This document shows positions 48,024-51,901 of a stretch of DNA of 64,000 nt, piece after piece. The stretch lies in IMG/VR virus record IMGVR_UViG_3300044641_005618. One strand, written 5' to 3'. Below the pieces are notes generated by a model that was not told the DNA's origin, searched no databases, and saw only the letters and a list, made by a program, of their open reading frames with translations. Position numbers and translations under genes: made by a program. Source of the DNA: a virus (Duplodnaviria > Caudoviricetes). Position 1 is the first letter of the stretch; the number at the start of each line of letters is the position of its first letter.

Positions 48024-48467
48024 TCAGGTTCGGTCCCAAGAGTTCACGGTTAATTGAATCTCAATCTCCTGGACATTGCCGCTTTCACGGTCAACATCGG
48101 CGGTATTAAGAGACATGAACTGACACCCGTAGCAAGTGTATTGGCCGCCAGCAGGGGCTGATCCGTTTCCAACACAGTCCTTCGGAGTGACTGTAACTGT
48201 GATTTCTCGGCAATTGTACTGCAACCAGTAAATTTCCAACTGCTTGAAGATCGTGGGATCGTACGGAGCAGAAAGGGAGATGTTGTCTACCTTTTTGGGG
48301 CCTACAACTTTGTAAATACGGTTACCAGTACCATTGGCGTAGTCACTGCTACTTGAGGAATCCTTGATTCCGCTGAATTTTGTAAACGTGGCGATTAGTG
48401 TGGGTCCGTCAGGAGCTACGAAGCTAACTTCGTACTGGGACTTTGTAATCGGTCTGAGAATAGCCAT
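48024..48467 (-). CDS. Tail tube protein
   Basis: 147 aa; FTKFSG...GPKKVDNISLS...ITVTV...GCQFMS...DVDRES...EIQLTV, T4 gp19-like pattern. Confidence 0.8.
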   Translation of the reverse strand: MAILRPITKSQYEVSFVAPDGPTLIATFTKFSGIKDSSSSSDYANGTGNRIYKVVGPKKVDNISLSAPYDPTIFKQLEIYWLQYNCREITVTVTPKDCVGNGSAPAGGQYTCYGCQFMSLNTADVDRESGNVQEIEIQLTVNSWDRT

Positions 48468-48495: not shown

Positions 48496-51400
48496 TCAGG
48501 ATAGGATGTTGGTGATCATAGCGCCAGAACCAATAAGACCAGTTGCGCCGAGGCCAACTAGGTTAACCACACGTTCAATTGTGATTTCAGCACGAACAAC
48601 GCGGCGTTCACGAATGTAGTATTCGGGACGGACGGCGGGGGTGCCTGTGAGCTGATATGTGTAAGAGAAGGCAGGAGTCGCAGCATTCGCACCACCAGCA
48701 GGCATGATGGAATCAGAAGGACCGTTAGGGCTGTAGAACAGAAGGATACCGTTAGCGGGGAATACCGGCTGTAGGGTTCCATCTTGCGCTAAGTAACGAC
48801 CTTCGGCAACACGTAGGCCACGCTCAAGACCGAAGTAGCGAGCAATGACGTCAGTGTCGACGCTGTCTGCAGATGTGTACTTGATACGATCAAGGATCTT
48901 CTCGTTGGTCAGCAAGAGGTCAAACACGGCAGTACCGACGACTGCGGAGTTTGGACGGATACCGATTTGGTTGGCGACTGCACGCTTGAGGGTTAGGATG
49001 TCTTCAATTGGGTTAGAAGTAGCACCAGACCAGGCGGCGTCTCCAGCAACGGAGCCGTAAGCTGTCTTAAAGTTTGTCCAGGTTGTGAAACCGAGTCCGG
49101 TCTGGGAACCTGCGGTTCCGTTGTAGGGCTCGTAAGGGTTGTAAGTCGCGGTGACGGAAACAGCTTGAGCAACGGTGTACTCGTAGCTGTTCATCAATCT
49201 GGACATTGCATTCCTGGTTTCGATTGCGCGAAGATCTACTTGTGCAGGCAAATTGTTATCGTAAAGGCTCTTTATCCCTTACTTCTTTCTGTTTCCAGAA
49301 AGTTCAGACTATATCTTCACCTTTGCTAAGCAAAGGGCTGGGCGCTCGTGGACGAGTTATTGTTGTCGAAACTCATCGTCTAGTCGTTGAACCTTTTTAC
49401 CACAGAAATCATAGCGATTTCTCGACGTAGTAAACTCGGCTGCTGATTGCCTGTTTCTTTAACGGAAATTCAGGGATCCCAGCAATTCACCCAGTTAATT
49501 TGTGGTTAAGCTGCCACAGCAAGAGCCAAACAACCCTCGCCAGCGTTTTCAATTCAATACTGTTACCGTAAAGGCTCTTTATCCTTTACTTCTTTCTGTT
49601 TCCAGAAAGTTCAGACTATATCTTCACCCTTGTTAGGGTGCTAGGCGCTCTTGTCAGCTTCATCACTGTTCTAGTGGTATGCTGTTAGTCGTTGAACGTT
49701 CTCTCAGTCCCCTGAGAGTTTCGCTGCTGATTGCCTTGTGTTTCAGAGAAGTCACTCCTGAAACCGTCAGGTTTCCCAGCAATTCACCCAGTTTTTCTTT
49801 CAGTTTCTCAACTGATGGAGGCTATTGATTCAACCTCTTCAGGCAATTCCCAGGCGACCACTTCCTGCTCTAGAGCATAAGGCTCAGAGTCGTAGCGGCT
49901 TTGGACGTATGGGATGTTAGTTCCGTAAGCACGACGGAAATCGTTTATAGCAAACTGCTCCTTCCCAAATCTGAGAATTCTCCCAGCGCGGGTAGGGGTG
50001 TCCACAACCGGTGCGATAAACACTTGTTACCGTGAAGGCTCTTTATCCTTCACTTCTTCGCATTTCTGCAAAGATCAGACTATATCATCATCTTCCTTAA
50101 ACTTTTTAACAACGGTTCGCAGAGACTGCCAAGTATTACCTAGACCGGTTAGCCGGAACAGCTTCCTGGCCCCACACTTTTCGTTAGAAACCCAAACTTC
50201 ATGCAATAAACCTAAATTAGACCAAACTTCGACATTAGCCCGAGGGTTTTTAATGCCTGTTCGATCCCGGTCGGGTCTATTAGCGGCTTGCAAGGCGAAT
50301 TGTATAGTTGGTTTACTAAGTGCCTTATCTTTAAGTTTCTGTCTTGATTCTGCACTCCACACTCTGTTCTTGCATAATTCTGCACGAGCGGATCTTTCTT
50401 TATCAGACATTGGAACTTTCCTGGGTCTGGCCTTTCCTTTATTGGATTTGCCAATTTTAAACCTAGTTTCGTCCGAGTGTTTATGATGAGCTAAGGTTTC
50501 GTACACTCTGGAGTTTTTCGAAGACTCCTTGAAAGAGTTTATAGCTTTGCCTAACCTCTTTATGGAAGAGAAAGCTAGAGCCAGTAGGCAGTGAGACAGG
50601 TAGTGCTCTCTGTAGGTGAGTTTGATTAGGTTACCATCTTCATTTCCACCCTTCATGCACTTGGGCACTATATGGTGAATGTGGTGTCCGGGTTCTCGTG
50701 TCAAACTCCTTGGGGGTCTGGAGAGGATAAACTTTATGTACCGTTGGTAGTGTAAGGGAGAGTCGGGCGCTCGTGGAAAGATTATTTCAGGGTTGATCAC
50801 TTTCTAGTCGTTGAACCTTTTTACTTAACACTACTATAGTTAGTAGAGACCCTAAGTAAACTTGGCTGCTGATTGCCTATTTTGCAAAAGCAAAACTAAG
50901 GTATCCCAGCAATTCACCCGATTTTCAATCAGAGTCACCTCTGAGTGGAACCCTATCGATTCGCAATGTTGGTGGACAGTATGTTTTCTCTGCTTACACA
51001 GAGTGTCGGACTATCTTATCGTTTCTTTACAAAACGTTGGGCGCTCTAGCCTGTTATTAAGGGAACTAAATCCCCCAGGTAGTCTCTGAACCTTCTTCCG
51101 GTGTACCGGAAGCTTGGCTGCGGATTGACCCTTTTGCTAAGCAAAAGTAGGCTTTCCCGCAGTTCACCCAATTTCTTTTCCCCTACACCAAAGGGAGCAT
51201 GAAGCCTTGTGCGAGTGTTGTGAGGATTGGCCAGTGTTATCGCAAAAGCTCTTTATCTTTTGCTTCTGTATGTTTCCATACAGGTCAGACTATATCATCA
51301 TCTTTGCTTGAGCAAAGAGTCGGGCGCTCGTGGATTGTTCGCCTGTTCTAGGCTACTTAATCTAGTCGTTGAACCTTGCCCCTATCCCTAGGGGCCTTGG

Positions 51401-51793
51401 CTGCTGATTGCCTATTTTGCAAAAGCAAAACTAAGGTATCCCAGCAATTCACCCGATTTTCAACTTTGTTTGGAAGTTGGGACCCTAATTAATCCACACC
51501 TGCATAAGTTTGTTGTAGCAACTTGTTATCGTAAAGGCTCTTTATCCTTTACTTCTCTACATTTCTGTAAAGTTCAGACTATATCATCATCTTTGCCTGA
51601 GCAAAGAGTCGGGCACTCGTGTCAGCCTCATCACTGTTCTAGTGGTACGCTGTTAGTCGTTGAACCTTGCCCCTATCCCTAGGGGCCTTGGCTGCTGATT
51701 GCCTATTTTGCAAAAGCAAAACTAAGGTGTCCCAGCAATTCACCCGATTTTCAATCAGAGTCACCTCTGAGTGGAACCTTTATGATTCATCAT
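48496..51793 (-). CDS. Major capsid protein, split by six group I introns (7 exons, 351 aa spliced)
   Basis: Exons 51793-51785, 51518-51492, 51230-51192, 50976-50959, 50020-49833, 49554-49533 and 49248-48496 total 1056 nt and read MMNLQQTYAGVDPILTTLAQGFMLPSTNIANFIAPVVDTPTRAGRILRFGKEQF...ELPEEVIENAGEGPAQVDLRAIE... The gene follows the protease and decoration genes. Confidence 0.9.
49249..49532 (-). mobile_element. Group I intron 6 of capsid gene (284 nt, no ORF)
   Basis: P AATTGCTGGGA, Q AATCAGCAGC, R TTCAACGACTA, S GATATAGTCT; P3 CUGGGUG/CGCCCAG; P1 GAGGGU with GCUCUU; ends in G. Confidence 0.9.
49555..49832 (-). mobile_element. Group I intron 5 of capsid gene (278 nt, no ORF, phase 2)
   Basis: P/Q/R/S present; P1 GAGGU with GCCUC; P10 UCAAU with exon AUUGA; ends in G. 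Confidence 0.9.
50021..50958 (-). mobile_element. Group I intron 4 of capsid gene (938 nt) carrying a homing endonuclease
   Basis: P/Q/R/S present; P1 GAAU with GUUC; 7-bp P10 CGAUAGG with exon UUUAUCG; ends in G. Confidence 0.92.
50075..50800 (-). CDS. Intron-encoded HNH homing endonuclease with NUMOD3-like repeats
   Basis: HIHHIVPKCMKGGNEDGNLIKLTYREHYLSH motif, then HSDETRFKIG and WSAESRQKL repeats. Confidence 0.88.
   Translation of the reverse strand: MINPEIIFPRAPDSPLHYQRYIKFILSRPPRSLTREPGHHIHHIVPKCMKGGNEDGNLIKLTYREHYLSHCLLALAFSSIKRLGKAINSFKESSKNSRVYETLAHHKHSDETRFKIGKSNKGKARPRKVPMSDKERSARAELCKNRVWSAESRQKLKDKALSKPTIQFALQAANRPDRDRTGIKNPRANVEVWSNLGLLHEVWVSNEKCGARKLFRLTGLGNTWQSLRTVVKKFKEDDDIV
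50977..51191 (-). mobile_element. Group I intron 3 of capsid gene (215 nt, divergent)
   Basis: P AACTGCGGGAA, Q AATCCGCAGC, R TTCAGAGACTA, S AAGATAGTCC; P3 UUGGGUG/CGCCCAA; P1 UCCCU with GGGGA; P10 UUGGUG with exon CACCAA. Confidence 0.9.
51231..51491 (-). mobile_element. Group I intron 2 of capsid gene (261 nt, no ORF)
   Basis: P/Q/R/S present; P3 UCGGGUG/CGCCCGA; P1 GGAU with GUCC; ends in G. Confidence 0.9.
51519..51784 (-). mobile_element. Group I intron 1 of capsid gene (266 nt, no ORF)
   Basis: P/Q/R/S present; P1 GAAU with GUUC. The 3' splice site could alternatively be 3 nt upstream (51522), adding one Leu. Confidence 0.88.
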
Positions 51794-51881
51794 AATAGAT
51801 GTTTCCTTGTGTGTAAAGTTGACTTCAAAGATTGCCGAAGCAATCTGACCCGCGAGTCCGAAAACTTTGGGGTCACTGTAG

Positions 51882-51889
51882 TTATACCC
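51882..51889 (-). promoter_or_regulatory. GGGTATAA variant of the putative late promoter, upstream of the capsid gene
   Basis: Lies just after a terminator and about 90 nt before the capsid ATG; the same variant occurs at 10646-10653. Confidence 0.55.
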
Positions 51890-51901
51890 TTCTTTTTCAC
51901 G

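Follow-up and report, generated by a model that had tools for sequence, protein, structure and literature searches.

The major capsid gene of a crAss-like Zeta phage (cMAG OLRF01000054) is broken into five fragments, three intervening segments carry group I intron-type domains, and the intron load of these phages was interpreted as an infestation of core genes by selfish elements (Yutin et al. 2021, PMC7886860). As at the locus described here, the gene belongs to a metagenomic phage, codes for the major capsid protein and is split into several pieces. It has four interruptions, whereas six are found here and eleven in the relative L056; its introns were spotted through the protein domains that they encode, without RNA evidence for that gene, and both the capsid family and the host (Bacteroidota gut phages) are different. 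Here, in contrast, most introns are ribozymes of 215 to 284 nt that lack an ORF, crowded into 303 nt of coding sequence.

In Faustovirus E12, the major capsid gene has 13 exons, with micro-exons of 13 nt and up, and RNA-seq junctions show its splicing; group I introns account for five of the 12, and homing endonucleases occur in two (PMC6247863). The combination of micro-exons and group I introns in a capsid gene is the same as here, but Faustovirus is a eukaryotic giant virus, 7 of its 12 introns are spliceosome-like, and they measure 396 to 3256 nt, over about 17 kb. Its endonucleases are of the GIY-YIG type, and the putative one here is HNH-like. In fungal mitochondrial cox1 and rDNA, too, a single conserved gene is packed with numerous group I introns and homing endonucleases, with micro-exons and an intron number that varies by strain. 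These arrays differ in being organellar and eukaryotic, in their LAGLIDADG/GIY-YIG endonucleases, in their much larger introns and in a common dependence on protein maturases. The mitogenomes of Ophiostoma are intron-rich (PMC12308204).

The capsid gene of mycobacteriophage LittleE is interrupted once, by an 819-bp intron whose endonuclease ORF runs on the opposite strand. Its splicing was verified by N-terminal sequencing and RT-PCR, and is efficient enough for the hundreds of capsid subunits in each virion (Pope et al. 2013, PMC3706429). A capsid intron of lactococcal phage Tuc2009 is cited in the same paper, and capsid-gene introns have also been published for crAss-like Delta/Zeta phages (PMC7886860). 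LittleE and Tuc2009 resemble the present case in having a capsid-gene intron that follows an exon-terminal U, ends in G and is polymorphic among close relatives, but LittleE has one intron where this gene has six. An earlier note on this DNA, made from the sequence, had stated that phage group I introns are mostly reported in DNA-metabolism genes and usually number one to three per gene; this was overstated, given the published capsid introns of Tuc2009, LittleE, crAss-like Delta/Zeta phages and Faustovirus.

Several introns per gene are also found in orf142 of Staphylococcus phage Twort, which has three, with exon skipping reported according to the citation of Landthaler and Shub (1999) in PMC11878797. 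The introns of orf142 and of T4 td, nrdB and nrdD have a P7.1/P7.2-type insert and stop codons in frame close to the 5' splice site (PMC11878797; PMC2988022); those described here likewise have an insert at the P7.1/P7.2 position and such stops. Introns of the Twort and T4 type are self-splicing and lie mostly in DNA-metabolism genes. Surveys of cultured phages give "two or even three" introns per gene as the maximum (PMC11878797). To judge by the literature searched, the array described here packs group I introns more densely than any other bacteriophage gene does: six, and in one relative eleven, over about 360 nt. Multi-intron capsid genes being known (crAss-like Zeta, Faustovirus, LittleE), we therefore regard it as an extreme case of a known kind, with no new mechanism.

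Our analysis of the window, a stretch of 64,000 nt, confirmed that the major capsid gene of this cyanophage-like freshwater virus is broken up by six group I introns, with micro-exons down to 9 nt. Its features, in the direction of transcription, are as follows.

51803..51808, minus strand: AAGGAA, putative Shine-Dalgarno-like element 9 nt before the ATG, read from the sequence
51785..51793, minus strand: exon 1, 9 nt (ATGATGAAT, MMN), by spliced alignment
51519..51784, minus strand: intron 1, group I, 266 nt, after CDS nt 9; RF00028 89.2 bits; P1 GAAU/GUUC with U.G; 3' end G
51492..51518, minus strand: exon 2, 27 nt (LQQTYAGVD), by spliced alignment
51231..51491, minus strand: intron 2, group I, 261 nt, after CDS nt 36; RF00028 97.1 bits
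51192..51230, minus strand: exon 3, 39 nt (PILTTLAQGFMLP), by spliced alignment
50977..51191, minus strand: intron 3, group I, 215 nt, after CDS nt 75; RF00028 66.0 bits; P1 UCCCU/GGGGA
50959..50976, minus strand: exon 4, 18 nt (STNIAN), the inner letters of an RNA joint
50021..50958, minus strand: intron 4, group I, 938 nt, after CDS nt 93; ORF inserted in the P8 loop; RF00028 72.2 bits; 7-bp P10
50075..50800, minus strand: intron-4 ORF, up to 241 aa, putative homing endonuclease with an HNH-like motif and NUMOD3
49833..50020, minus strand: exon 5, 188 nt, by spliced alignment; 100% identical in contigs L001-L007
49555..49832, minus strand: intron 5, group I, 278 nt, after CDS nt 281 (phase 2); RF00028 103.2 bits; P1 GAGGU/GCCUC
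49533..49554, minus strand: exon 6, 22 nt (end of the V codon, then IENAGEG), placed from intron-less homologues
49249..49532, minus strand: intron 6, group I, 284 nt, after CDS nt 303; RF00028 85.3 bits; 10-bp P1
48496..49248, minus strand: exon 7, 753 nt (250 aa and stop), bearing the Phage_cap_E match; PF03864 and S-CBWM1 similarity

A spliced-alignment dynamic program found exactly six interruptions and 0 mismatches, with exons of 9, 27, 39, 18, 188, 22 and 753 nt, as had been read from the sequence. Their joining yields a frame of 351 aa identical to the database protein P0002, whose coding sequence is uninterrupted on public contigs. All six introns fall, as previously noticed, inside the first 303 coding nt, after nt 9, 36, 75, 93, 281 and 303. 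Another position for exon 6 (49559-49538) was rejected: it ends in G and gives ...VIELKTLAP..., where intron-less homologues have ...VIENAGEGP...

The gene product is, judging from profile and structure matches, a predicted major capsid protein of the Phage_cap_E/HK97-like type. In a Pfam profile search, exon 7 matched PF03864 (Phage_cap_E) with an E value of 1.4e-10, and both exon 7 and the identical full-length P0002 scored 40 to 41 bits against a cutoff of 22.9. Comparison with intron-less capsid homologues, proposed in the earlier note as a check, showed the spliced 351-aa product to be colinear with them, and its colinear match to PDB 3bjq, a solved structure of this capsid family (residues 11 to 139, E 4e-28), spans five of the six junctions. 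Synechococcus phage S-CBWM1, the closest cultured relative, has a capsid gene without interruption; its gp175, annotated "major capsid protein", is 62% identical in amino acids, and the order portal, Mu-like protease/scaffold, capsid, tail-tube-like protein and baseplate J is common to S-CBWM1 and the window. The virus appears to be an uncultured freshwater myovirus akin to S-CBWM1, with a picocyanobacterium as its probable host.

The Rfam covariance model RF00028 matched six times over its full length (1 to 253) on the minus strand between 49249 and 51784, at 66.0 to 103.2 bits (gathering score, 50 bits), which bears out the six group I introns originally proposed. The GACTA and TAGTC strands of P7 occur once each in all six, as had been noted (GACUA/UAGUC). 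Every upstream exon ends in T and every intron in G, the U...G boundaries are unique, and a pairing of 4 to 10 bp between exon and guide at intron nt 7 to 11 (P1) begins in each case with the expected U.G pair. P3 forms 7 bp; its compensatory variants are UC/GA, UU/AA and CU/AG within the window and UA/UA in relatives, and such 7-bp pairings were found in 34 of 34 located family members. The co-variation described for P3 in the earlier note holds, except that the 3' strand of intron 5 reads CGCCUAG and not CGCCCAG. Compensatory changes were also observed in the P9 and P9.1 hairpins; in the predicted fold, intron 3 is without the 3' P9.1-like hairpin. All six introns have an insert of 34 to 37 nt between P7 and P3' that folds as an interrupted hairpin (z -0.3 to -2.3), which is consistent with subgroup IA, with IA1, IA3 and the IA2 named in the earlier note all possible. 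An in-frame stop occurs 3 to 27 nt inside each intron. Long near-identical blocks are common to the introns, which are paralogues of one another. These data establish the ribozyme identity, the exact boundaries and the restored frame.

Of the six, only intron 4 carries an endonuclease-like ORF, which sits in the P8 loop; the RF00028 alignment places the insertion inside the model P8. NUMOD3 scored 21.3 bits against a cutoff of 20.4, and Pfam HNH 12.6 bits, under its cutoff of 21.4, with an HH...N...H pattern visible in the translation. Where the ORF starts is uncertain, since its frame overlaps the ribozyme core on the 5' side. Relatives have orthologues of it at this site, with 63 to 81% amino-acid identity. 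In this group of HNH/NUMOD3 endonuclease ORFs, those at the same site are orthologous and those at different sites are distant paralogues.

An intron census covered 80 of 280 IMG/VR relatives, using an nhmmer profile, and Rfam on selected loci. The capsid gene is intron-less in 58 of the 80 and carries the same intron family in 19, with numbers that range from 0 to 11 (contig L056), which shows a presence/absence polymorphism. About 13 sites are used, all within the first ~120 codons. Short and ORF-bearing versions both occur at sites 9, 41, 93, 281 and 303; at site 93, relatives have an ORF-bearing intron (938 to 953 nt), an ORF-less one (263 to 277 nt) or none. The family was not found outside the capsid gene in the 64-kb window or in the flanks of the relatives. 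Apparent introns in contigs whose sequence begins within the gene (L008, L010, L042), or caused by an indel near codons 142 to 150, were discarded as spurious, and a boundary at site 93 of L056 obtained by a forced U...G shift was rejected for giving a wrong peptide. Conservation as the sole reason for the N-terminal clustering was also rejected, since codons 281 to 320 match the N-terminal third in conservation and are intron-free.

We consider it about 90% probable that the capsid gene has been colonised by six related subgroup-IA-like group I introns, excised from one precursor, of a selfish family spread by homing. The gene would be transcribed as a single precursor in which each ribozyme folds independently, the last 4 to 10 nt of the upstream exon pairing with the guide at intron nt 7 to 11. 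Removal would proceed by the standard two-step guanosine-initiated transesterification, for which the introns are probably autocatalytic, and would yield a 1056-nt mRNA for the 351-aa capsid protein; the in-frame stops 3 to 27 nt into the introns would bar ribosomes from the ribozyme cores. The introns would be selfish elements of one family, with homing probably driven by the P8-loop HNH/NUMOD3 endonucleases, and would have diversified across the phage lineage, reaching about 13 target sites within that third of the gene which is most conserved.

The earlier note had suggested that the array could act as a "timing or yield gate". It would then be an adaptive regulator in which six splicing events limit or delay capsid output. 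Exon 1 has 9 nt, and codon 3 takes part in P1 of intron 1; with only 9 nt between the ATG and its 5' splice site, intron 1 might be coupled to translation initiation, and in the RNA runs unspliced contigs of introns 2 and 3 occur beside spliced ones. Splicing kinetics, however, cannot be read from contig depths, and most close relatives make the same protein from an intron-less gene. An intron number of 0 to 11, mostly none, is the mark of mobile selfish elements and not of a conserved regulator, so that we regard such a role as improbable; a selfish intron/endonuclease family accounts for the pattern more simply.

A further reading of the selfish family, which is possible but which we hold only tentatively, is that the 5' third of the capsid gene is a battleground of co-infecting relatives, where endonucleases convert intron-less competitors (marker exclusion). 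The radiation to about 13 sites would then have occurred because each new endonuclease specificity cuts and converts the capsid gene of intron-less competitors, in an arms race reaching up to 11 introns per gene. On this reading, dense arrays with exons of 8 to 39 nt would also require the ribozymes to fold in coordination, because one micro-exon gives P10 to one of them and P1 to the next.

Joining at the predicted junctions was observed in contigs of four lake metatranscriptome runs (X15, X16, X18, X19), at five of the six sites exactly and at the sixth within 1 to 3 nt. At junction 1, about 51784 is joined to 51517/51515; at junction 2, the joint 51230 to 51492 skips 261 nt and occurs in four RNA runs and 0 DNA runs. 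Exon 4 shows as 17 letters between the two sides of the joint 50020 to 51191, in four RNA runs, and a synonymous variant of exon 6 as 21 letters within the joint 49249 to 49833. The latter was seen in X16 only; X15, X18 and X19 have loose ends at that junction. At the contig level, no joined junctions were found in the DNA runs X1-X4, where the introns are present at full depth. Excision that is precise and restores the capsid frame is thus seen in RNA runs only, in agreement with the spliced junctions that had been predicted. Exon-skipping joints of the kind reported for Twort were not found in the four RNA runs at the contig level. The odd joints 49194 to 51270, 49233 to 51609, 50074 to 51285 and 51333 to 49686 lie in blocks common to introns and were taken as assembly chimeras, not as exon skipping. 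The RNA evidence consists of assembled metatranscriptome contigs from strains ~2% different from the window, and DNA and RNA come from separate samples. L012 was considered as DNA of the RNA-run strain, but at about 98.5% it matches that strain no better than the window does; in X4 DNA, all six introns are present, with SNPs in common with the RNA strain.

The introns could in principle be real while the six-intron allele is decaying or defective and not productively spliced, the joined RNA coming only from intron-less relatives. Such relatives are common (58 of 80), so some joined contigs could stem from them, and the divergence and separate sampling of the RNA point the same way. Nevertheless, this is very improbable. 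In four DNA runs the depth of the six-intron allele is about that of the phage DNA on either side (roughly 30-110x), and 14 DNA runs, from 14 studies of 2020-2024, contain 76 to 96% of its words. Its exons show no defect of frame, their product is identical to P0002, and its six ribozyme cores all score well over the RF00028 threshold. Moreover, the RNA runs hold intron-containing contigs alongside joined ones, and the partly joined contigs L004-L007 (sample type not given) carry the same exon SNPs. An assembly artefact that inflated the number of introns or scrambled their order is hardly credible: although the introns share long near-identical blocks, Logan contigs break within introns and some RNA contigs are repeat-mediated chimeras, DNA contigs of X1-X3 span every exon-intron boundary and tie each unique exon to both flanking introns with 0 differences (X4, 2 differences on one contig), the segments 49292-49615, 49599-50787, 50923-51392/51425, 51434-51592 and 51749-51900 tile the array, and the independent IMG/VR contigs L008, L012 and L014 use the same sites.

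The array resides in a single essential, very highly expressed gene, and offers a natural system for how tandem ribozymes 8 to 39 nt of exon apart fold and splice without mutual interference and for how an intron/endonuclease family multiplies inside one gene. Lakes harbour alleles with 0 to 11 introns side by side, so that intron gain and loss can be observed in time-series metagenomes. ORF callers were expected to annotate only the last exon of this gene. Indeed, truncated calls of 232 to 266 aa are frequent in the protein database, and gene callers, by reducing the protein to its last exon in many entries, affect viral annotation and MCP-based phylogenies.

The Rfam search placed six RF00028 group I introns in the window, all within 49285-51798 on the minus strand, with scores of 66.0-103.2 bits (gathering score, 50 bits) and each match covering model positions 1-253. 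No other Rfam family reached threshold across the whole 64 kb. The presence of a six-intron capsid gene, as read from the sequence in the earlier note, is thus confirmed. Moreover, the minus strand and the exon sizes proposed there give a single open frame of 1056 nt, whose 351-aa spliced product is the same at every residue as P0002, a database protein encoded without interruption on public contigs. An independent spliced-alignment dynamic program found these six interruptions again, without a mismatch, and under the rule that the exon ends in U and the intron in G, a single boundary fits per intron. Comparison with intron-less homologues, a check that the earlier note had proposed, located exon 6, since these homologues read WELPEEVIENAGEGPAQVD in this region.

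Exons of the capsid gene in the window
51793-51785, minus strand, exon 1
51518-51492, minus strand, exon 2
51230-51192, minus strand, exon 3
50976-50959, minus strand, exon 4
50020-49833, minus strand, exon 5
49554-49533, minus strand, exon 6 (placed by intron-less homologues)
49248-48496, minus strand, exon 7

Within 48496-51793, the G+C content is 43.9% in introns versus 52.1% in exons (whole window, 49.1%), resembling the exon/intron compositional contrast reported for the Faustovirus MCP gene.

Both exon 7 and the full-length P0002 match Pfam Phage_cap_E, and residues 11-139 align colinearly with PDB entry 3bjq ("Phage-related protein"; E 4e-28). All junctions but the first (at codon 3), five in total, fall within that range. 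Among cultured phages, Synechococcus phage S-CBWM1 (Aokuangvirus; capsid 62% and portal 61.5% aa identity) is the closest relative, and its gene for gp175, "major capsid protein," is uninterrupted. The capsid gene is accompanied by genes for a Mu-like portal, a Mu-like protease/scaffold, a tail-tube-like protein, and baseplate J. Judged from this relationship and these neighbors, the phage is a freshwater virus, uncultured and related to a cyanomyovirus, and its predicted host is a picocyanobacterium.

The ribozyme elements could be followed in each intron. P1 pairs the last 4-10 nt of the upstream exon with a guide at intron nt 7-11, starting with a U·G wobble in all six, and intron 4 additionally has a 7-bp P10. 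The P7 motifs GACUA and UAGUC occur once each per intron. The covariation of P3 described in the earlier note extends well beyond the window: among 39 introns compared, P3 formed 7 bp in each of the 34 that the motif search located (five were missed), with compensatory variants UC/GA, CU/AG, UU/AA, and UA/UA. An insert of 34-37 nt between P7 and P3' in every intron folds as an interrupted hairpin. This is where subgroup IA introns typically have P7.1/P7.2, so that the six are subgroup-IA-like and the IA2 of the earlier note is a candidate assignment. P7' is followed by a P9 of 6-8 bp with a GAAA tetraloop (GUAA in intron 3) and, in five of the six introns, by a further hairpin of 7 bp that shows compensatory changes.

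Splicing was explored in lake-water sequence data, with evidence that is at contig level throughout and RNA strains that differ by ~2% from the window. Of the region's 31-mers, 76-96% were present in 14 DNA runs (14 studies) and just 43-54% in six metatranscriptome runs. Contigs from four RNA runs (X15, X16, X18, and X19) contain joints across intron 1 (51517/51515 to 51784), intron 2 (51230 to 51492), and introns 3 and 4 (50020 to 51191, the 17 letters between being exon 4). For introns 5 and 6, X16 has the joint 49249 to 49833, whose 21 intervening letters are exon 6 in a synonymous variant, and in X15, X18, and X19 the exon 5/6/7 join is seen as loose ends. No such joints occur in contigs of four DNA runs (X1-X4), where intron depth equals flank depth and each exon is linked to both adjoining introns, with zero differences in X1-X3. 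All six introns are still present in X4, which has seven SNPs in common with the RNA strain.

The junction search in RNA suggested by the earlier note therefore returned joined contigs from RNA only, to be read within the limit that intron-less relatives are common. Productive splicing of the six-intron allele is the only reasonable reading, since a persistent, abundant phage needs its capsid gene, and the main interpretation, a capsid gene with six group I introns, is supported. The contig L012 was considered as DNA of the RNA-run strain and was rejected on comparison. The gene is fully joined in three Logan contigs (L001-L003), which continue into the downstream gene. Four JGI contigs (L004-L007, records without a stated sample type) have sites 4-6 joined, keep introns 1-3 in varying combinations, and carry the same exon SNPs; they look like splicing intermediates.

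The downstream gene (48024-48467; 147 aa; weak, sub-threshold match to the T4 gp19 tail tube) is found together with the spliced capsid mRNA on the joined contigs L001-L003, consistent with cotranscription. In X16, a 121-nt contig wholly within intron 6 (49345-49452) has a word depth of ~282, comparable to that of exons, which may reflect excised intron RNA that is stable, or else k-mers piling up from blocks common to several introns.

In-frame stop codons occur 3-27 nt into each intron, so that ribosomes entering an unspliced intron would halt before the core. Exon 1 is only 9 nt long and AAGGAA precedes the ATG by 9 nt, which would place the first 5' splice site within the footprint of the initiating ribosome. 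The proposal that splicing acts as a timing or yield gate on capsid production is unsupported.

Among the best 80 IMG/VR relatives, the gene is full-length and uninterrupted in 58, and 19 harbor introns of the window's family, without exception on the gene strand and 5' of the last exon. Rfam-confirmed introns number 11 in L056, five in L014, five in L012, and three in L018.

Intron arrays in relatives
L056:1671-4999 (IMGVR_UViG_3300027763_000031, 127-kb contig), 11 group I introns (Rfam)
L014:2374-5352 (IMGVR_UViG_3300044625_001067, 277-kb contig), five introns, also in L017

In silico splicing of L056 gives a 351-aa frame, with conserved sequence matched at 10 of 11 junctions (the site-93 boundary excepted) and exons before the last of 9, 32, ~52, ~57, 10, 32, 81, 8, 22, 15, and 38 nt. 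L014 and L017 have introns at coding nt 41 and ~356, both unused in the window, and ORF-bearing introns at 41 and 303; the size of the L014 contig suggests that some members of the lineage are jumbo phages. The recurrent insertion sites (coding nt 9, 36, 41, 75, 93, ~150, 160, ~192, 273, 281, 303, 318, and ~356) all lie within the first ~120 codons, the best-conserved stretch of the gene, where majority identity is 99.4% (aa) and 92.2% (nt), versus 94.0% and 88.1% in the rest of the gene. Conservation explains this clustering only partly, because codons 281-320 are similarly conserved yet free of introns.

Identity among the window introns is 55-79%, and for each there is at least one relative whose same-site intron is 84-100% identical. 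Introns at sites 9, 41, 93, 281, and 303 come in two versions, a short one (~215-300 nt) and an ORF-bearing one (~800-950 nt), and the ORFs share 55-97% aa identity at the same site and 24-54% between sites. This is the pattern expected if a homing intron/endonuclease family had multiplied and been retargeted within one gene. The intron-4 ORF matches NUMOD3 just over the cutoff and an HNH-like motif under it. Its frame is open back across the P7.2/P3'/P8 core (50690-50800), and the read-through peptide KV(I/T)(N/D)P..I.FPRAPD recurs in the ORF-bearing introns that relatives carry at sites 9, 41, and 93. This peptide probably reflects conserved RNA and not protein, so that the assigned start of the ORF is tentative.

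Single capsid-gene introns are reported for lactococcal phage Tuc2009 (as cited in PMC3706429) and mycobacteriophage LittleE (PMC3706429). The crAss-like Delta/Zeta phages have capsid-gene introns, with one Zeta MCP in five fragments (PMC7886860), Faustovirus E12 has 13 exons and 12 introns, five of them group I (PMC6247863), and a Jug phage genome contains 18.5 group I introns on average, terL being split into 2-3 fragments (PMC12880540). Both mechanism and kind are thus already known, and the array is an extreme new case of a known type that should interest ribozyme and phage-evolution specialists. No description of capsid introns in this phage group was found in open-access papers and bioRxiv. 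The new aspects are how densely introns are packed in a bacteriophage gene (six in the window and 11 in L056), micro-exons measuring 8-39 nt, the spread of a single intron family to ~13 sites, and support from environmental RNA.

Many public gene calls in this family (P0006, P0016, P0019, P0021, P0025, P0028, P0032, P0033, and others) are truncated to 232-266 aa, on long contigs of up to 282 kb, and likely represent the last exon alone, a systematic annotation error caused by the introns.
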